A stretch of DNA of 64,000 nt from a virus. The DNA is taken from IMG/VR virus record IMGVR_UViG_3300029574_000202; one strand, written 5' to 3'. The position numbers and the translations under genes were made by a program. Shown here in pieces: positions 2,762 to 62,725 of this stretch (positions within the stretch are counted from its first letter, which is position 1; the number at the start of each line of letters is the position of its first letter). The notes beneath the pieces were generated by a model, which was given only the letters and a program-made list of their open reading frames with translations, made no database searches and had not been told where the DNA came from.

Positions 2762-2892
2762 TTTAGTATTTTTAACTAAAATATCTATTAGTATATTTGC
2801 ATATATACGAATATGTTAGTACCTTTGCATATAGTTAAGAAGCAGGTAGAATTGACTAACAGGTCGCTACCTAACAAGTTAAACCAATTAAA
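2762..2892 (+). promoter_or_regulatory. Repeated promoter-leader cassette, copy A. It has a Bacteroidetes -33 TTTG / -7 TAnnTTTG promoter (tatatTTTGcatatatacgaatatgttagTAccTTTGcatatag), a leader hairpin AGGTAG-N17-CTACCT, and gttaaaccaattaaa just before the ATG at 2905.
   Basis: At least 95% identical to copies at 15925..16055 and 22911..23043. The two TTTG elements are 20 nt apart, matching the Bacteroides sigma-AB consensus spacing. Confidence 0.6.
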
Positions 2893-2904
2893 ACATTAAA
2901 GATT

Positions 2905-3132
2905 ATGAAAGCAATAAAGATTAACAACTTCTCAGAGTCATTGGTACTCGTTTTCGTTGAGAATAATATAACATTCGCATACAATTGGGGAAACGCAATT
3001 GTTATGGGTACAAGCAGCATAGAGAAACTTAAGGCTCGCTTGATGAAAATAGGTGTAGCCCCTTCTGATGTTGAACTTCTTTCTTGCGAGGTGATTGAAC
3101 TTAACAACGCAAGTGATATATACGATTTTTAA
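2905..3132 (+). CDS. hypothetical protein (75 aa); the N-terminus MKAIK is shared with the ORF at 23054, which follows another copy of the cassette
   Basis: ORF directly downstream of the promoter cassette; start context is identical to 23054. Confidence 0.4.
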   Translation: MKAIKINNFSESLVLVFVENNITFAYNWGNAIVMGTSSIEKLKARLMKIGVAPSDVELLSCEVIELNNASDIYDF

Positions 3133-3152
3133 CCAATTAAATCCACAATATA

Positions 3153-3344
3153 ATGAATACCATAACATTAGATTTCGAAAAATTAGCAGAAGCAATGGTT
3201 GTTTCGTTCAAGTACAACACAAAAGAAGAACATAGAGGCGCATTAGCTATGCTGAGCATGATTGTTGGCAATGGAGATATGTATAACAAGATTTGCGAAA
3301 TAGCTGAAAAGAAACTCGCAGAAGAAAAGAACAACGAAAAGTAA
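3153..3344 (+). CDS. hypothetical protein (63 aa)
   Basis: ORF preceded by ttaaccaattaaa about 15 nt upstream of the ATG. Confidence 0.35.
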   Translation: MNTITLDFEKLAEAMVVSFKYNTKEEHRGALAMLSMIVGNGDMYNKICEIAEKKLAEEKNNEK

Positions 3345-7288: not shown

Positions 7289-7314
7289 AAATGGCGTTTT
7301 TGATTAAAACAACC

Positions 7315-7420
7315 CTTGATATATTTGCATATATGCAAATATATTAGTACCTTTGTATATAGAAAGTTGGAAGTTAGATTTGATTGTCCAAATCATCCGA
7401 ATAAGTTAAACCAATTAAAT
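7315..7420 (+). promoter_or_regulatory. Diverged copy D of the promoter-leader cassette. It has atatTTTGcatatatgcaaatatattagTAccTTTGtatatag, a different leader hairpin (GATTTGA...TCAAATC) and gttaaaccaattaaattcag.
   Basis: The promoter core and the downstream taaaccaattaaa are conserved. The leader hairpin sequence is replaced but a hairpin is retained. Confidence 0.5.
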
Positions 7421-7549
7421 TCAGTGTAATATAAATACAAAATAAAAAGTCCAGACATCCACAAAGCGGAGACAAATAATGTTAAATTATTGTTAAATAT
7501 TAATATATATCACAACATATATCAAAATAATCACTATTTTTGCAATCAA

Positions 7550-8395
7550 ATGACATACGACTACGACAAATTAAGAGAGTACGTTAAACGATGTAATTGG
7601 TGTTGGGCTCAGTCTATGATAGAAGTGCCGCATGAATACATTCATCGTGACAAGTGCGCATTGACTCGCGAAGAGTTCTATTATTTCGTTAGCGCCCAGC
7701 GTGAAAACGGAATACACGAACGATGGGGTAAATACAATTTCCCATATCTTTACCTGGACGGATACAAGTATTGGACAATGGGAGACCCATTTGAAACCAC
7801 TTGGATTTTAAATCGCCAGAAGGTTTTCAACGAATTTGACTTTCTCGACTGGCCGATTCCAAGACTTCATACAAACCAAGAAATGGACATGATGGCGAAA
7901 ACCATTTTGTATTCATTTAAAGAAAAGAAGGTTTTTGAGGCTGGAATAGGAAATGGCGATTTCGTGAAGTTGTCTAAAATCCGACCGGAAATGTATTATG
8001 GGGTTGACCCTAGCAAAAAGTCAATATTGCAGTTCCGTGCGAACGCATTCGGATTTTATAGAAGGTGCTCTACAAAGTCATTCGAAGAGTCAATCAACAA
8101 ATGGCTTTCAGCAGACAGCGTCGTAATTTCCCTATTTGGAACAGCATCGTATTTCATGCATCAGTATCTAGAGAAACTTGGTAAGAGTGGGATTGATTAC
8201 TGTTTGATGTTTTATCGAGAGGACTTCGAACCTGAAGAGTTCAAAGATATGCATCACTTTAAGTACGACCGGGTACAATTGAAGTCAATGTTCCCAGGCT
8301 GCAATCTCTACAACCACCAAAAATACATAACAATATCAAACAAAAAGTTAGTTTGGCAGCAACCGACAATAGAAAATGAATTATTCCCAGTATGA
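7550..8395 (+). CDS. Class I SAM-dependent methyltransferase-like protein with a Cys-rich N-terminal extension
   Basis: Motif I KVFEAGIGNGDF and motif II YYGVDPS. The ORF track starts at 7490, but the Asn/Ile-rich first 20 codons are doubtful, so the start is placed at 7550 (MTYDYDK). Confidence 0.45.
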   Translation: MTYDYDKLREYVKRCNWCWAQSMIEVPHEYIHRDKCALTREEFYYFVSAQRENGIHERWGKYNFPYLYLDGYKYWTMGDPFETTWILNRQKVFNEFDFLDWPIPRLHTNQEMDMMAKTILYSFKEKKVFEAGIGNGDFVKLSKIRPEMYYGVDPSKKSILQFRANAFGFYRRCSTKSFEESINKWLSADSVVISLFGTASYFMHQYLEKLGKSGIDYCLMFYREDFEPEEFKDMHHFKYDRVQLKSMFPGCNLYNHQKYITISNKKLVWQQPTIENELFPV

Positions 8396-15804: not shown

Positions 15805-15924
15805 GCACCAAAGCCGCATGGGATTTATTCCGTGCGGCTTATTCTTTTCGGTTCGTGCAATTATGGTTATGCCGGATTTAGAAAATCATATAAGCCATAT
15901 AAACCACTGATAACCAGCGGTTTA

Positions 15925-16055
15925 TTTAGTATTTTTAACTAAAATATCTATTAGTATATTTGCATATATACGAATATGTTAGTACCTTTGTATATAGTTA
16001 AGAAACAGGTAGAATTGACTAACAGGTCGCTACCTAACAAGTTAAACCAATTAAA
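15925..16055 (+). promoter_or_regulatory. Repeated promoter-leader cassette, copy B (near-identical to A and C)
   Basis: Identical to copy A apart from 2-3 substitutions. Followed by ttaaattcagaagag and then the ATG at 16066. Confidence 0.6.
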
Positions 16056-16065
16056 TTCAGAAGAG

Positions 16066-16227
16066 ATGTCGGAAACAAAATGCACAACTTACAAAAATCA
16101 TGTTATCCAGAAGTTTGAGGATAGCGACGGGTTTGTATCAGTACTTATCGACTTCAAGATAGAGGCTGTTACACTAAATAACGCAAAGAGAATTATCAAT
16201 ACTGGTTGTTCAATCTATAACTATTAA
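16066..16227 (+). CDS. hypothetical small protein (53 aa, MSETKCTTYKNHV...)
   Basis: First ATG after cassette copy B. The track ORF at 15976 starts inside the promoter repeat and is rejected in favour of the 16066 start. Confidence 0.3.
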   Translation: MSETKCTTYKNHVIQKFEDSDGFVSVLIDFKIEAVTLNNAKRIINTGCSIYNY

Positions 16228-19700: not shown

Positions 19701-21281
19701 TTAGAAGTTATATTCTTTTATTTCCAGAATACCATCACGTAGTATAGCGCATAAAACGTTTCTCAAAGGAGTATTAGAGTTATTGCTTTTTAGTACTCCC
19801 AACATTCGCTTGTATCCATCTATAAGCTTCTCTTCTTCAAACATAGAAGGCTCGTGGAAATATAAGCAAACATCATGATATTCGGCTGCGACATCTTCTC
19901 TTAAGTTGAATTTCTTTAATTGCCGACTCTTGTTTAGCAGTTGGTTTCTATAATCCACGGTGTTACTAGTAATAGATGCCAAGTCCATCAAGCGGCCGTC
20001 TAAAACCATGTCAAGAGCAGCCATCTCTTTCCCCGTTTTGTCTTTCTTACCTTCTTCGCAAAATATAACACTATGTCCATCAGAAAATGCCTTTTCTAAA
20101 AATTCATTTTCTAAATCGTCACCATCCATCGTTCCGTTAAAAAAGTCTTTTGCAGTATAGTTGTGCTTGTTATGACTTATGTGAACAGCTTTGACGCCAC
20201 CTGCGGAATTTATTTCAACATCCTTATAGTTTGTATCATTCTTGAGTTTCTGATACTCGTTTCTTTTTCGAACGACCAAACGCACTTCCTTATCTGCAAT
20301 AAAATTAGCGTTATCAGCAAGAAAGTAAGGTAAACTTTTATTAGATTTTATCTTATCAGCGTTGTTCGATATCCACTTGTTAAAACTGCTTGGGACATCG
20401 GTGTATAATTTCTTCGGGCCTTCGCCCCAATACTCTTCTTCAGTCATTATAACGGGTACAGCGTAGCACATGCAGTTAACGTGCCAACCACTCCAAGGGA
20501 AGCCATTGGGGTATTTTCCGGCAAGTTCATCGCACATATCCTCTTTAGGGTGGCTCCCACTTGTTCTGATTTCAATGCCCTTGACAAAATCAAAGCGACG
20601 CCAACGTTCCTGCTCTGCAGTGCGATAAGCCATGTTTATCTCGTTGCGAGCGAGTCTAACACTACGATATTCGCACCCTGAAACATCTATCGCTTTACCA
20701 TATTTCTTCTTGTAATCTTTAGCAAGCGAAGGATAATCATTTAGATATTTACTAACACGTTTACTAAGCTTAACAGCGCTCATACCCTTCTCTATCCCCG
20801 TGGCCAATGCTCGCTCCAATGACTTCTTAACATCCTCCCTTTGATTCCAAATACGTTGAGACAGATTCATTCCTTTTATTGTTCGATTCTTGAACGCTTC
20901 TTTTGCGGCATTATTCTTCTCGTAGTATGCCTTAACTCGCTTTTGCCCTATACGCCTTGAGTAAGACTTAATGACTCTGCGCACAAGCAAGTCTTGGAGA
21001 GTGTTGCTACTTTCCCATTCGTTAGATATTCCACTGTAAACAAGTGTTTGCATATTACTTGAATAGTAATTGAGCAGAGATTTCACTCTACGTTCGGTCT
21101 TGGGATAATTAGAAAAAGAAAACTCATCGCTGCCGTCATAACCTACATCAACAGCAAGTTTTGCAGCCTCTTTTGCGAGCATTGCATATATAGCCAACAC
21201 CTTTCTAGTGTATTGGTTCAGTCTTTTGGACAGGTCTTTGTACGCTTTCTTTTGATTTGGTGTGCTTATTTTTGCCATCAC
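19701..21281 (-). CDS. Phage head morphogenesis protein, Mu gpF / SPP1 gp7 family
   Basis: RLARNEINMAYRTAEQERW...GIEIRTSGSHPKEDMCDELAGKYP...WHVNCMCY is the canonical Phage_Mu_F C-terminal domain ending in H.NC.C. Length 526 aa. Confidence 0.85.
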   Translation of the reverse strand: MMAKISTPNQKKAYKDLSKRLNQYTRKVLAIYAMLAKEAAKLAVDVGYDGSDEFSFSNYPKTERRVKSLLNYYSSNMQTLVYSGISNEWESSNTLQDLLVRRVIKSYSRRIGQKRVKAYYEKNNAAKEAFKNRTIKGMNLSQRIWNQREDVKKSLERALATGIEKGMSAVKLSKRVSKYLNDYPSLAKDYKKKYGKAIDVSGCEYRSVRLARNEINMAYRTAEQERWRRFDFVKGIEIRTSGSHPKEDMCDELAGKYPNGFPWSGWHVNCMCYAVPVIMTEEEYWGEGPKKLYTDVPSSFNKWISNNADKIKSNKSLPYFLADNANFIADKEVRLVVRKRNEYQKLKNDTNYKDVEINSAGGVKAVHISHNKHNYTAKDFFNGTMDGDDLENEFLEKAFSDGHSVIFCEEGKKDKTGKEMAALDMVLDGRLMDLASITSNTVDYRNQLLNKSRQLKKFNLREDVAAEYHDVCLYFHEPSMFEEEKLIDGYKRMLGVLKSNNSNTPLRNVLCAILRDGILEIKEYNF

Positions 21282-22910: not shown

Positions 22911-23043
22911 TTTAGTATTTTTAACTAAAATATCTATTAGTATATTTGCATATATACGAATATATTAGTACCTTTGCATATAGTTAAGAAGCAGGTAGAA
23001 TTGACTAACAGGTCGCTACCTAACAAGTTAAACCAATTAAAAC
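22911..23043 (+). promoter_or_regulatory. Repeated promoter-leader cassette, copy C
   Basis: Near-identical to copies A and B. Followed by aacattaaagattATG, the same start context as copy A. Confidence 0.6.
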
Positions 23044-23053
23044 ATTAAAGATT

Positions 23054-23476
23054 ATGAAAGCAATAAAGAACAATGAGTTTAAGAACAAATCAAATGAAAC
23101 ACTTGAAAAGTGTTCACAGAGAGTTTATTCAATACTGAAAGATACTAACTGGAATGTGGAATATGTATATACAACCTACAAAGGCGTTATTTTAAGGATT
23201 TGCCTTAACGGAAAAAGAAATACGGAGTTGGATTTAGTTTGGAAGGAGCAAACAAAATACGAAAGCGAGTCATTCACGACAAACGTAAGAACCGCAGGCT
23301 CATTTGACCTATTTTCAGGAAACGAATCTGGAACAGAAGCTAACTTTTACAAAGAAGTCGGCATTCTTATTTCAAACGTAGAAGTGCTTTCAAAAATCAA
23401 AGAAGCAGCAAAAGATTGCTCCGCAGAAATGGAAACTTTAGAAATAGAATACTCAAAACTCAAAGATAAAGATTAA
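23054..23476 (+). CDS. hypothetical protein (140 aa); N-terminus MKAIKN, compare the ORF at 2905
   Basis: ORF downstream of cassette copy C. Confidence 0.4.
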   Translation: MKAIKNNEFKNKSNETLEKCSQRVYSILKDTNWNVEYVYTTYKGVILRICLNGKRNTELDLVWKEQTKYESESFTTNVRTAGSFDLFSGNESGTEANFYKEVGILISNVEVLSKIKEAAKDCSAEMETLEIEYSKLKDKD

Positions 23477-31043: not shown

Positions 31044-31775
31044 ATGAACAAAGAAATGAAACAATACACTGGAACAAAGACAGTGAAGGCTATGCCTATG
31101 ACAATGGGTGAAGCCTACGAGCGCAAGCTCTTGAAAGAGGGCGTAAGACCCTCTGAGTGTGAAACAGACAAGGCTGGCTACCTCGTTGAGTATGAAGGCG
31201 GTTACCAGTCTTGGAGTCCGAAGAGCATATTTGATGAAGCATACAAGTGCGCTGACACTTTCCTTGACCGTTTAAAAGTTGAGTATGAAGAACTCATGAA
31301 GCGGTATGAGAAATGCGCTGCATTCGTAGATTCTGAAAAATTCCGTAAGGTGGTTAAAGAAGACTGTCCTGCTTTTCTGCTTTCATTGCAGCGTAAATTT
31401 ATGGGATATTATTTGGTAATCCTTGAACAGCGTATGGCTATTGCCAAGGGAGAAATAAGCATCACTACATTAACGGGAATGTCTTTCGGTTCAGCTATTC
31501 AGGCATTAAAATTCGGTCTTGCCATCCGCAGAACTGGTTGGAACGGCAAGGGACTGTTTGTCGTGAAGCAAGTTCCTGATCGTATCACTGGTGACATCAT
31601 TCCTAATATGCAGTCACTTCCCCAGTCTGCCAAGGACATCATTATGGCACGTGCTGAGCCACACATCAGCTATACCAACCAGATGCTTATTGTACATCCA
31701 GACGGACGTGCCGACTCTTGGGTTCCGTCTTCGAGTGATGTGTTTGCAGAGGACTGGGAGTTGGTAACTGAGTAG
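31044..31775 (+). CDS. hypothetical protein (about 243 aa)
   Basis: ORF; start at MNKEMKQ after the previous stop. Confidence 0.45.
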   Translation: MNKEMKQYTGTKTVKAMPMTMGEAYERKLLKEGVRPSECETDKAGYLVEYEGGYQSWSPKSIFDEAYKCADTFLDRLKVEYEELMKRYEKCAAFVDSEKFRKVVKEDCPAFLLSLQRKFMGYYLVILEQRMAIAKGEISITTLTGMSFGSAIQALKFGLAIRRTGWNGKGLFVVKQVPDRITGDIIPNMQSLPQSAKDIIMARAEPHISYTNQMLIVHPDGRADSWVPSSSDVFAEDWELVTE

Positions 31776-37338: not shown

Positions 37339-37629
37339 ATGAGTAGAGGAAAACATTTTTCACAGGAAGAGATAGAATTCCTAAAGGTTAATGCTCTTGT
37401 TATGACTACAAAGGAGCTTGCCGACAAACTCGGAAGAAATTATTGGGCAGTACATAGAAAACTGCAAGCAATGGGAGTAATAAAGAATCATGTATTTACT
37501 GCCGACGAGGACTTTATCATAAAAAGAATGTATGGTAAATACACTGCAAAGGTAATAGCTACCAAAATAGGAGTTGACGAGAATGCGATATACAATCGTT
37601 GTAAAAAACTAAAGTTAAGCCAGAAATGA
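37339..37629 (+). CDS. small DNA-binding protein with two HTH-like repeats (96 aa)
   Basis: The repeats TTKELADKLGRNYWAVHRKLQAMGV and TAKVIATKIGVDENAIYNRCKKL. Confidence 0.4.
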   Translation: MSRGKHFSQEEIEFLKVNALVMTTKELADKLGRNYWAVHRKLQAMGVIKNHVFTADEDFIIKRMYGKYTAKVIATKIGVDENAIYNRCKKLKLSQK

Positions 37630-38099
37630 TAAAGAGTTTTACAATAGACCACACAAGGCTAAAACCTGGAATATATGTTTCAAGGGAGGATAGTATAGGG
37701 AAAGAGCGAGCAACAACTTATGACTTGAGAGTCTGTTTGCCGAATAAAGAGCAATTGACACCAGAGATTGCGCATACGATAGAGCATCTTATGGCAGATT
37801 ATTTACGCAACGAATGGGTCTACAAACAAAAAGTTATTTATTTTGGGCCTATGGGATGTCTAACCGGTTTCTATCTAATTCTTAAAGGTAAACCGGACAT
37901 TGTAAGGGTCGCTTGCGCACTAGTAGAAGCATTGAGATATTGCTCTAACAGTTCGTCTATACCAGGTGCTACAGAAAAGGAATGCGGTAACTATAAGTTG
38001 AATGACTTACAAGGAGCTATCAAAACTTTGAAGGGTTTTAAGGAAGATATAGAGAATAAAATCTCAGAAGCATCAAATGTATTTTCATACCCACGTTAG
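37626..38099 (+). CDS. hypothetical protein (157 aa)
   Basis: ATGA overlap with the previous gene. Confidence 0.4.
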   Translation: MIKSFTIDHTRLKPGIYVSREDSIGKERATTYDLRVCLPNKEQLTPEIAHTIEHLMADYLRNEWVYKQKVIYFGPMGCLTGFYLILKGKPDIVRVACALVEALRYCSNSSSIPGATEKECGNYKLNDLQGAIKTLKGFKEDIENKISEASNVFSYPR

Positions 38100-38115
38100 A
38101 TTTATATGTAAACAT

Positions 38116-38171
38116 AAAGATTTGACTATCAGATACTTATTTTAAAAATAAGCTTTGATAGTCAAATCTTT
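38116..38171 (+). terminator. Strong intrinsic terminator, followed by a late promoter (TAtaTTTGcacc at about 38176-38190)
   Basis: Perfect 16-bp inverted repeat AAAGATTTGACTATCA...TGATAGTCAAATCTTT with a palindromic loop and a trailing T-rich run. It immediately precedes the structural operon. Confidence 0.55.
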
Positions 38172-38251
38172 ATTATTATATTTGCACCATAATAACTGCT
38201 GTGATAAATCGTACTGGGATATTTAATGATTAATCACTAAATATCAATAAA

Positions 38252-42806: not shown

Positions 42807-42911
42807 GCCCAAGTAGCTCAGTTGGAAGAGCATGGTCTAAAGTTAGCCATTGTTTAAATCCGCAGACCATAAAGCGGTTGAGAGTCGCAGGTTCGAATCC
42901 TGTCTTGGGCA
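42807..42911 (+). tRNA. tRNA-like gene of aberrant length (105 nt). The acceptor stem, D-arm and T-arm are canonical, but the anticodon region is a 6-bp stem enclosing 25 nt and the variable region is 17 nt. It may be an intron- or insertion-containing tRNA or a tRNA-like structure; no CCA is encoded.
   Basis: Acceptor GCCCAAG pairs with CTTGGGC; D-arm GCTC AGTTGGAA GAGC; T-arm GCAGG TTCGAAT CCTGT. Between them TGGTCT...AGACCA flanks AAAGTTAGCCATTGTTTAAATCCGC, followed by TAAAGCGGTTGAGAGTC. Confidence 0.5.
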
Positions 42912-61023: not shown

Positions 61024-61059
61024 CACAACCATGTAACCAGCTGATAATCAAGTAATTAT

Positions 61060-61190
61060 ATTTTAGTATTTTTAACTATAATATTTGTTAGTATATTTGT
61101 ATATACTGCATATTATTAGTACCTTTGTATATGAAAACAGGTGCATTTAGCTAAGATGACACCGAGATAAAACCAATTAAATTCGCAATA
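61060..61190 (+). promoter_or_regulatory. Diverged copy E of the promoter-leader cassette
   Basis: tttagtatttttaactataatatttgttagtatatTTGtatatactgcatattattagTAccTTTGtatatg, then a different hairpin (GGTG...CACC), then ataaaaccaattaaattcgcaatattATG at 61193. Confidence 0.5.
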
Positions 61191-61192
61191 TT

Positions 61193-61522
61193 ATGAACAT
61201 TATTAATGTAGCAAAATTCTTTGATTGCATGGCAAGAGGGGATATTGCATTTTCAGTAGATGATGTAATGACCGACTTCGAAACACACTTCGGAGTAAAA
61301 AATGCATTGCCGCCATGTGCAGAACATCATGAAGCAACGAAACATCGCGAAGGAACATATCTAGCTGTATATGTAACTAGTGACTCTTTGGATGAAGATG
61401 TCCTGATTGATGCTTTAAGGATGCACATGAAAGGTCTTACATGGTGGTTGTTCGAATCACCATACGGAGAGAACGAAGTAGTTTATATCGTAAAATTAGA
61501 TGATAATGATGATGAGAACTAA
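61193..61522 (+). CDS. hypothetical protein (109 aa)
   Basis: ORF after cassette copy E. Confidence 0.4.
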   Translation: MNIINVAKFFDCMARGDIAFSVDDVMTDFETHFGVKNALPPCAEHHEATKHREGTYLAVYVTSDSLDEDVLIDALRMHMKGLTWWLFESPYGENEVVYIVKLDDNDDEN

Positions 61523-61757: not shown

Positions 61758-61783
61758 GTTTAACCAATTAAGCAATAAAGATT

Positions 61784-62725
61784 ATGAACATGAATTTAAA
61801 TGCTAGTGCTGCAAATATGGTAGCAACCATGGAAGCAGCGACGGAGGACAAGTTCTTCGATTTTGAGAAAGCAAAAACCCAGGAGATAACCCTCGAACAG
61901 CTTGGAAGAACATACCGTGAGAATGATGTGTATGGTTATCCTTTGAAGGGCATATATCACTACGACCTTTTTAACAAGGTAATAGCCGAGTGTGAAGATG
62001 TGGGCTATAACGTAGAGGTGTATGATATGTTCGCAGCACAAAATAGGGATAGAAATCAGCCCGGCGTTGTGAAGCTTCCCCAGGTAGAAGCGCAGAAAGG
62101 GGAGAACGCAGTTGAAGCGCACATTTTAAGAAGAGTTTTCGCTAATATCAGAATCACGGATTTTGATGACGGCGAAACCACAACGAACCTTGCTGTAGCT
62201 TTTCACCAAAAAGGAATACAGATTGGATTCGGCCCGAATGTTATGATTTGCCATAACCAGTGTCTTTTAAACCCCGAACTCTACATGTCTACATACTCAG
62301 AAAAAGGAAGAAAGGGTAGTGGAATCGAGCTATCTACAATGCTTGATACATTGAAGTCCTGGCTGGTGGATGCGCGGCATATCGTGGAAACGGATAGAGA
62401 ACGCATCGAAAAGATGAAAAACACGCGTGTGTCAGCCGAACAGATGTTCACTCTGATAGGGATTATGACTGCGATGCGTGTCAAGTCAGATACGACGCGT
62501 AAGTCGATACGAGAAAACATCACATACCCTCTTAATCAGTCACAAATAACCGTTTTCACCGAAGATATGCTTGAAGCATATCACACAAAGGAGGTTGTGA
62601 CTGCTTGGGATATGTACAACTCTGCAACGAACATGTACAAAGCAAACAAGATGGATATCCCGGCCCTACTTCCACAAAACAGAGCATTTGTTGACTTTAT
62701 AAATAAATATGTTATAGAACTCTAA
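61784..62725 (+). CDS. hypothetical protein (313 aa), possibly a DUF3871-like protein of Bacteroidales mobile elements
   Basis: ORF preceded by gtttaaccaattaagcaataaagattATG. The family guess is from memory only. Confidence 0.4.
   Translation: MNMNLNASAANMVATMEAATEDKFFDFEKAKTQEITLEQLGRTYRENDVYGYPLKGIYHYDLFNKVIAECEDVGYNVEVYDMFAAQNRDRNQPGVVKLPQVEAQKGENAVEAHILRRVFANIRITDFDDGETTTNLAVAFHQKGIQIGFGPNVMICHNQCLLNPELYMSTYSEKGRKGSGIELSTMLDTLKSWLVDARHIVETDRERIEKMKNTRVSAEQMFTLIGIMTAMRVKSDTTRKSIRENITYPLNQSQITVFTEDMLEAYHTKEVVTAWDMYNSATNMYKANKMDIPALLPQNRAFVDFINKYVIEL

Follow-up and report, generated by a model that had tools for sequence, protein, structure and literature searches.

A repeated candidate promoter-leader cassette in a temperate Segatella/Prevotella phage

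We analysed 64,000 nt (the window) of the virus record IMGVR_UViG_3300029574_000202, whose source contig is 86,971 bp long, and found a unit of ~145 bp that recurs in front of gene blocks. We interpret this repeat, with a probability of about 0.7, as a portable cassette that combines a promoter, a 5' untranslated region and a translation-initiation region, and that belongs to a temperate Segatella/Prevotella phage. The cassette has the same composite anatomy at syntenic sites in related phages, its copies evolve in concert within a genome, and homology between relatives ends at its 3' edge.

Anatomy and distribution of the cassette

A preliminary description of the window reported three copies of the repeat. 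All three are present, and their 131-bp core is 98.5% (copies 1 and 2), 99.2% (copies 1 and 3) and 97.7% (copies 2 and 3) identical. They match from TTTAGT (2762, 15925 and 22911) to AACCAATTAAA apart from one to three substitutions, and a pattern made from the 49-nt core had three matches in the window against 0.00 in shuffled sequences. The count of three did not hold, however, as a repeat finder and an nhmmer profile revealed two diverged copies that had been overlooked (Table 1). The 10-mer AACCAATTAA has seven exact matches in the window, all on the + strand, against 0.34 expected. The prophage thus contains at least five cassettes, and we counted five to seven copies per genome. As first described, each copy lies 5' of a co-oriented gene block, and the genes after copies 1 and 3 start alike (MKAIK), these copies being identical through ATGAAAGCAATAAAGA. 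Copy 5 heads three ORFans that adjoin the integrase gene. Copy 4 includes a perfect 26-bp palindrome (7319-7344, ATATATTTGCATATATGCAAATATAT) and therefore carries a TAnnTTTG box on both strands.

Table 1 Coordinates of the cassette copies and associated features in the window.
Feature	Position	Strand	Upstream element	-33 TTTG	-7 box	Leader hairpin	Initiation module	ATG	nhmmer extent	Remarks
Cassette copy 1	2762..2907	+	TTTAGTATTTTTAACTAAAATA, 2762-2783	2796-2799	TACCTTTG, 2820-2827	2844-2872	GTTAAACCAATTAAAACATTAAAGATT, 2878-2904	2905	2762-2907	After dnaB; probable transcription start ~2831-2835; matches copy 3 on to 2920
Free-standing module	3128..3155	+					TTTAACCAATTAAATCCACAATATA-ATG; AACCAATTAA at 3131	3153		Inside the copy 1 operon
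Cassette copy 4	7292..7423	+			Boxes at 7320 and 7348	7369-7398	AACCAATTAA, 7409-7418		7292-7423	Diverged (61-72% gapless identity); other stem (GAUUUG/CAAAUC); next called gene starts at 7550
Intrinsic-terminator-like hairpin	15811..15840	+								13-bp stem and T-run; closes the terS/terL unit; 85 nt 5' of copy 2
Cassette copy 2	15925..16068	+	15925-15946	15959-15962	15983-15990	16007-16035	AACCAATTAA, 16045-16054	16066	15925-16062	After terL
Cassette copy 3	22911..23056	+	22911-22932	22945-22948	22969-22976	22993-23021	AACCAATTAA, 23031-23040	23054	22911-23056	Divergent from the - strand portal-gene promoter; codons 2-4 converted to those of copy 1, identity to 23069
Cassette copy 5	61063..61195	+	61062-61083 (ACTATA half-site)		Boxes at 61092 and 61120	61140-61163 (GGUG/CACC)	AACCAATTAA, 61171-61180	61193	61063-61188	Diverged (~80% over the promoter half)
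Free-standing module	61759..61786	+					TTTAACCAATTAAGCAATAAAGATT-ATG; AACCAATTAA at 61762	61784		Inside the copy 5 operon

The Bacteroidetes promoter motif and the direct duplication of its core, both noted earlier, are borne out. All five copies, and likewise the cI/cro-like region, have TTTG 20 nt upstream of TACCTTTG, an arrangement that matches the consensus for the primary sigma factor of Bacteroidota (-7 TAnnTTTG, with -33 TTTG 19-21 nt 5'). The core TTTGCATATA occurs twice, giving tandem -7-like TAnnTTTG boxes 28 nt apart, both of them conserved. In agreement with the preliminary description, we take the second box (TAccTTTG) as the probable -7 box, because a variant 365 bp before the window start keeps the upstream element, the -33 TTTG and the second box but has lost the first. 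The cI/cro-like intergenic region, which lies in the same prophage outside the window, has the tandem promoter core without upstream element or leader. A scan for sigma-70-type promoters returned 71 sites against 54 expected, and sigma-70 grammar is irrelevant for this phylum. At the cI-like/MerR-like divergent region (L209 2128-2240), the tandem core reads GTATATTTGCATATAT...GTATCTTTGCATA. Two inverted repeats seen there by eye, ATTGTTA-N8-TAACAAT and TCTTTGCAT-N15-ATGCAAAGA, are candidate operators and are absent from the cassettes.

Upstream of the promoter, at about -72 to -50, lies an AT-rich and nearly invariant element (TTTAGTATTTTTAAC...) whose distance to the -33 box is constant in all lineages. 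In most copies it is a perfect TTTAGT-N7-ACTAAA palindrome (five matches in the window, 0.42 expected). The right half-site decays in distant or partial copies, to ACAATA in locus L077, GGCTAAA in copies of the copy 4 type and ACTATA in copy 5, while the T-tract half stays. This decay would fit an UP-like element at least as well as a site for a dimer, and the element may thus be a UP-like or activator site. A CTGA-N3-TCAG-like box is found 20-31 nt 5' of the cassette in four of the five insertion-site classes. Its window sequences are CTGATATTCAG (2733-2743), CTGATAACCAG (15907-15917) and CTGATAATCAA (61041-61051), and relatives have TTGATTACCAG or CTGATACTCAG. Because this box recurs, the conserved unit may reach further 5' than was first described.

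A TerL pattern scan of IMG/VR yielded at least 591 TerL-confirmed candidate stretches, from which 80 related loci were fetched and compared. The cassette is present in these loci at syntenic sites, namely after terL, in the portal-divergent region and after dnaB, and a promoter-only copy also lies ~7 kb upstream of terL. We aligned 155 copies (152 from the related loci and the three near-identical ones of the window). The most constrained blocks are TTTAGTATTTTTAACTAAAATA, GTAnATTTGCATATAT, GTACCTTTGCATATAG, TTTTGAYTA, AAGTTRAACCAATTAAAA and AAAGATTATG.

Neither blastn (distant) nor megablast found anything among 50,697 phage records that matches the cassette or the window's first 25 kb, and literature matches to cassette sequences were coincidental primers only. 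The 22-mer TTTAGTATTTTTAACTAAAATA occurs nine times in 185,579 genomes (one per species). Three of these matches belong to a prophage of Segatella copri N016-9 and carry the full cassette; the other six lack it. The repeat is therefore a phage element and not the generic host intergenic repeat that the preliminary description had considered. The 22-mer scan revealed no host-wide repeat, diverged copies elsewhere in the host chromosome being beyond its reach. The related prophage of the cultured strain N016-9 has its three full cassettes within 58 kb of one contig, and these mix type A and type B leader stems in a single genome. An exact 22-mer was also seen in a red-deer Prevotella metagenome-assembled genome (L200, position 3649), between a tyrosine-integrase gene and the host mutS2. 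A CGTACCTTTGCA box follows it at a distance of ~50 nt, and the remainder of the cassette is missing there.

Leader hairpin and translation-initiation module

The inverted repeat announced for the leader is present in copy 1 (AGGTAG 2844-2849, N17, CTACCT 2867-2872), one base to the left of a literal reading of the preliminary description. We recovered ~100 distinct leader sequences, each of which folds to a hairpin at the same place. The stems are of at least eight unrelated kinds: AAGGUAG/CUACCUU, AAGAUAG/CUAUCUU, AGGUAG/CUACCU, GGGAGG/CCUCCC, GAGAGG/CCUUUC, GUGGUUA/UAACCAC, GGUG/CACC and AUAGU/ACUAU. They enclose a loop or an inner helix that starts with the conserved (U)UUUGAYUA.

To quantify this, a covariance model built from one leader class was searched over 28 sources, giving an alignment of 46 distinct sequences (A5). 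Its outer helix shows double changes at six of seven pairs, and 91% of the cells are paired. The covariation score is 0.229, compared with 0.124 ± 0.008 in shuffles (none of 500 reached it) and 0.035-0.062 for slid partners. Pairs of the G-U kind occur often, and the U-run of the inner helix stands opposite variable purines, which favours an RNA of the sense strand over a DNA palindrome. These compensatory changes support the view that the hairpin is a conserved structure. The hairpin would lie downstream of the predicted transcription start site. It is not a terminator, as no T-run follows it 3'.

Rfam has no family for the leader at either threshold, and RNAalifold found no structure in a MAFFT alignment of 45 leaders, in which the stems are out of register; the covariance model was used for this reason. 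Native leaders fold at -9.5 kcal/mol and chimeras with swapped 3' halves at -6.8 kcal/mol, a weak comparison in which GGTAG arms are shared by many classes and one class is mis-trimmed. Two further structures were rejected. For a second small hairpin (AGUUG/CAAUU) over AACCAATT, only GTTGAACC lineages give a prediction; GTTAAACC lineages, that of the window among them, have lost it. A loop pseudoknot with UUAAAA fails to pair in the window's own lineage. We also observed that the 5' arms of the hairpins are purine runs resembling Shine-Dalgarno (SD) sequences (AAGGUAG, GGGAGG, GAGAGG, CAGGUG), and that the 3' arms resemble anti-SD sequences (CUACCUU, CCUCCC). Examples are at window 2844-2872 and L004 5296-5356. 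The arms lie ~55 nt away from the AUG, and SD sites are not used in this phylum.

The leader ends in an A-rich module of the form AACCAATTAAAA-N9-11-ATG. In line with the earlier placement of the leader end 10-25 nt before an ATG, GTTAAACCAATTAAA ends 13 nt (copies 1 and 3) or 11 nt (copy 2) before the start codon. The related form GTTRAACCAATTAAAA-N9-11-ATG also occurs promoterless within operons, both in the window and in relatives, where its distance to the ATG is typically 11-13 nt, and the module is therefore a separable unit. In AACCAATTAAAACATTAAAGATT-ATG, A stands at -3, -5 to -7, -10 and -12 to -15 by direct count.

In Flavobacterium johnsoniae, A at -3, -6, -12 and -13 together with low structure was shown experimentally to promote SD-less initiation (PMC6847099). 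Our module has A at the same positions. Everything 3' of the hairpin, through the AUG and beyond, is predicted to be unpaired, as expected for SD-less initiation in Bacteroidota. The module resembles the Kozak-like SD-less regions of Bacteroidota (Baez et al. 2019, PMC6847099) in both respects. Unlike those regions, it is a fixed module of ~25 nt (GTTRAACCAATTAAAA...AAAGATT) that stands unchanged in front of many genes in one phage family, either by itself or closing the cassette on its 3' side, with an invariant AACCAATT part.

Concerted evolution and module exchange

We compared cassette copies from ten genomes in an identity matrix, which is block-structured. Paralogues within a genome are 95-100% identical (L054 excepted), whereas orthologues of different lineages are only 67-85% identical. 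The paralogue values are 98-99% in the window, 95-98% in L003, 99% in L007, 100% in L009 and L043, and 87-93% in L054. Compared with the copies of the window, those of L004/L005 are 80-85% identical, those of L007 77-80%, those of L009/L043 77-79% and those of L054 68-73%. Neighbouring core genes are ~76% identical, about the same as the cassettes between lineages. Variants of the promoter spacer, which is unlikely to be under base-specific selection, are lineage-specific and common to all paralogues of a genome. The copies must be old, since their syntenic positions are held in all lineages. Old copies that are near-identical within each genome imply gene conversion and not recent duplication, and the matrix shows concerted evolution.

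One conversion tract runs into a coding sequence at copy 3. The gene after this copy begins with ATGAAAGCAAT (MKAIK) in the window and with ATGAATACAGA (MNTEK) in L001 and L003, whose orthologous regions are otherwise 95-99% identical to the window. Here the window carries the version found at its own copy 1.

Homology between relatives breaks at the 3' edge of the cassette, in the ranges 2909-2914, 16055-16060 and 23058-23082 depending on the relative. L003 aligns to the window at 97.5% identity up to 2911; 0.9 kb of unrelated sequence then stands in place of the window's 4.5 kb, and the alignment resumes at 7475 with 83.5% identity. After copy 2 nothing aligns from 16055-16060 until 17336. 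On the portal side, the long high-scoring pairs of 62 loci pass through copy 3 and end at ~23058. No PHROG or Pfam family could be assigned to the genes that come first after each copy. Behind copy 3 the block consists of consecutive small ORFans and contains a Tad2-like/Sequestin anti-defence (anti-Thoeris-type) gene, 31044-31775. The suggestion that the cassette is a hotspot of module shuffling, with recombination junctions in relatives, gains support from these breakpoints, from the homogenisation within genomes and from the tract that enters the coding sequence.

The preliminary description had also pointed to the PeSL elements of T4-type phages (Arbiol et al. 2010, PMC2839356; Comeau et al. 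2014, PMC4122927). They measure ~100 bp and combine an AT-rich region with an early promoter, a stem-loop, an SD site and an ATG; they adjoin ORFans, and recombination takes place between them (PMC2839356). Full cassette copies share this composite intergenic anatomy, with Bacteroidota signals replacing sigma-70 and SD signals: an AT-rich region, a predicted strong host-sigma promoter, a stem-loop, a ribosome-binding sequence and a start codon. In both systems ORFans or variable regions lie alongside, and recombination between copies explains indels and replacements. PeSL crossovers map between the -10 box and the ATG (PMC2839356), and the one conversion tract of the cassette ends just inside the coding sequence.

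There are clear differences. The cassette has no sequence homology to PeSLs, uses -33/-7 and not -35/-10 boxes, belongs to another host phylum and relies on a putative SD-less start. Its stem-loop is in the transcribed leader, has no U-tract and is no terminator; a separate terminator precedes copy 2 only. There are five to seven copies per genome instead of dozens, and they are longer and far more alike (98-99%). Finally, the phage is temperate, with an integrase and an SPP1-type portal, and not a virulent myovirus. We therefore regard the cassette as a Bacteroidota analogue of the T4-type PeSLs and not as a member of that family.

According to secondary descriptions, P_BfP1E6, an engineered phage promoter of Bacteroides fragilis, has -33/-7 boxes of the same consensus and spacing, an AT-rich upstream region and an A-rich SD-less site, as does the cassette. 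It is described there as a strong phage promoter with UP elements and as an engineering part. The multi-copy state, the leader hairpin and concerted evolution distinguish the cassette from P_BfP1E6 as so described.

Prophage context, alternative readings and meaning

Host genes lie beyond both ends of the element, and a cI-like gene and an integrase gene lie inside it; the window is therefore 64 kb of an integrated temperate prophage of ~72 kb. To the left of the window are a host hybrid two-component gene and then a cI-like HTH_3 gene (- strand). Divergent from the latter run a MerR-like gene (84 aa), a GerE/LuxR-type gene (189 aa), replication genes and ninG. The window encodes DnaB, PcfK/PcfJ, ParB_N proteins, PAPS reductases, TerS/TerL and a ligase, followed by an SPP1-type portal and a minor-head/Bxa-like protein (both - strand), a Phage_cap_E capsid protein, a tape measure protein and, at its right end, the tyrosine integrase. 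The host luxS and further chromosomal genes lie to the right of the integrase gene. By TerL, the nearest cultured relatives are the Bacteroides fragilis phages BF503P/BF486P (48% amino acid identity). In the literature on Segatella/Prevotella copri prophages we found nothing on this phage family.

Other observations concern the prophage itself. It has a LuxS homologue of its own (157 aa) and is integrated beside the host luxS (window 37626-38099 and L211 12568-13056). The minor-head protein (19701-21281, -) matches the PHROG of Bxa ADP-ribosyltransferase. In a gap between tail genes (42807-42911, +), 105 nt match the full Rfam tRNA model with 47.6 bits and are not called by ARAGORN; this may be an intron-containing or otherwise unusual phage tRNA. 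A 24-nt unit (ACACAAACGGAAACGCAAAGTGGT) is repeated head to tail about nine times at 40-292, in five cases perfectly; the array lies inside a 314-aa open reading frame that starts 5' of the window, and it gives an 8-residue protein repeat.

We propose that the cassette works as follows. The AT-rich element, at its set distance, would act as a UP-like or activator site for a host primary-sigma promoter of the Bacteroidota type (-33 TTTG, 20 nt, -7 TAccTTTG). The promoter would be followed by a leader of ~70 nt with a single two-tier hairpin, whose stem sequence varies while pairing is kept, and by an unstructured A-rich AACCAATTAAAA-N9-11-AUG that may replace the SD site. Host RNA polymerase would initiate at every copy, so that the long rightward genome is read as similarly driven units. 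The hairpin probably stabilises or insulates the 5' end, and the initiation region would stay open whichever gene follows. Because of ~145 bp of near-identity, copies would recombine with each other and with those of co-infecting relatives, and gene conversion would homogenise them within a genome. The 3' edge at the start codon would then be a junction at which ORFan-rich modules are swapped, pre-equipped with transcription and translation signals.

Several points weigh against this interpretation. Not every copy is intact: the initiation module of copy 4 is ~130 nt from the next called start codon. The presumed strength of the promoters is read from their consensus only. With six to eight consensus promoters in the prophage, strong constitutive activity would have to be silenced in the lysogen, and no operator common to the immunity region and the cassettes was found; some regulatory layer is thus missing from our explanation. 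Neither a generic UP element nor a purely structural hairpin would require anything like the invariance seen in the upstream element and the loop motif TTGAYTA. Alignment A5 was fitted to the model structure and so leans towards it, and the hairpin energy is unremarkable (z = -1.0 for the copy 1 leader and a mean of about -2 across variants).

The missing layer could be a dedicated regulon, which would add to the cassette reading and which we consider tentatively possible. The conserved non-promoter blocks (the TTTAGT-N7-ACTAAA element, the CTGA-N3-TCAG-like box 20-31 nt further upstream and the leader motif TTGAYTAWCAG) would bind a phage regulator that switches all units. This could be an early-operon activator such as the GerE/LuxR-type protein of 189 aa, or a dispersed-site repressor. 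P1 C1 operators and the stoperators of cluster A mycobacteriophages are such repressor sites, dispersed across temperate phage genomes. Like them, the blocks are short conserved sites at or just 3' of many promoters and oriented with transcription. Unlike them, they are not shared with the immunity promoter: the cI/cro-like region has the promoter core only, without the TTTAGT palindrome or the TTGAYTA motif. The near-invariance of the upstream element at constant distance to the -33 box, in lineages that are 67-80% identical elsewhere, and its perfect 6-bp inverted repeat in most copies favour a bound site, as does the CTGAT..TCAG box at four of five site classes; the loss of the right half-site in distant or partial copies while the T-tract half stays argues against it. 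TTGAYTAWCAG occurs five times in the window (0.23 expected), once inverted just 5' of copy 5. An 11-mer of this class (TTGACTATCAG) lies in an arm of a 26-nt inverted repeat (38106-38181, 88% complementary, arms 24 nt apart), which overlaps the -33 TTTG of a TATATTTG promoter at 38177 that precedes the capsid/tail (structural-gene) block. The need for silencing also speaks for a regulator, with HTH_3, MerR-like, GerE and two HTH_17 proteins as candidates, but the motif similarities were found post hoc. The single repressor or antiterminator target of the preliminary description is unsupported, the candidate operators of the immunity region being missing from the cassettes. It is doubtful, in our judgement, that the cassette is the cis-element of a phage control circuit new to Bacteroidota, in which phage factors read the upstream site and the TTGAYTA-loop hairpin with its SD-like and anti-SD-like arms. 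If it were, a GerE/LuxR-type or AlpA/HTH_17-type factor would switch on, silence or antiterminate all rightward units, and the same motif at the 38106-38181 promoter would couple early and late expression.

The remaining readings assign the hairpin or the whole repeat another role. An antitermination or pause cassette, with the hairpin and linear motif acting like lambda nut or HK022 put, appears improbable. In the pause variant, the upstream -7 box TATATTTG would be the true promoter and TAccTTTG, at about +16 to +23, would induce a sigma-dependent pause at which a Q/AlpA-like factor loads, making RNA polymerase terminator-resistant over long operons. The tandem conserved boxes, the variable stem with a conserved loop and then a conserved linear motif, the long units (e.g. 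23054 to ~38100) and two small HTH_17 (AlpA/Xis-type) proteins, one encoded by the second gene after copy 3, agree with this. However, the variant before the window drops the very box that would be the promoter, and one of the HTH_17 proteins scores as an excisionase in PHROGs. The only convincing + strand terminator in 1-20 kb of the window lies before a cassette, with none inside a unit. The leader has no Rfam match, and the called genes include no N-, Q- or NusG-like protein by Pfam annotation. That the inverted repeat is a DNA operator with two half-sites for a dimer, and not an RNA hairpin, is quite improbable. Its arms do change together between lineages (GGTAG/CTACC to GATAG/CTATC; GGGAGG/CCTCCC), as a co-evolving palindrome would. 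Yet at least eight unrelated stems at one position, sometimes in one genome, are too many for one protein; the common G-U pairs and the U-run opposite purines would be mismatches on DNA or on the other strand, and the arm spacing ranges from 7 to ~20 nt. A mobile element (MITE- or insertion sequence-like or homing-associated, autonomous or not) that carries a promoter by chance would explain the many copies and the sharp edges of identity at the 5' TTTAGT and at the start codon. We find this hardly credible, as terminal inverted repeats and target duplications are lacking at the copy edges, neither a transposase nor a homing endonuclease adjoins any copy, positions are syntenic in divergent lineages, every copy is co-oriented with its downstream gene, and the genome scan found no cassette outside this phage family.

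Very little has been mapped of the signals that drive gene expression in Prevotella/Segatella and their phages, and few genetic tools exist for S. copri. As a self-contained natural unit under strong conservation, the cassette is a ready candidate expression part. Its ~100 leader variants, and more over the whole cassette, provide a natural mutational series for Bacteroidota promoters and SD-less initiation. In the dispersed 145-bp copies, intragenomic gene conversion can be measured cleanly in a phage. Regulatory cassettes that serve as recombination linkers in the manner of PeSLs would not be confined to T4-like phages, and such linkers would shape module exchange in an abundant family of temperate phages of the human gut (at least 591 IMG/VR stretches).

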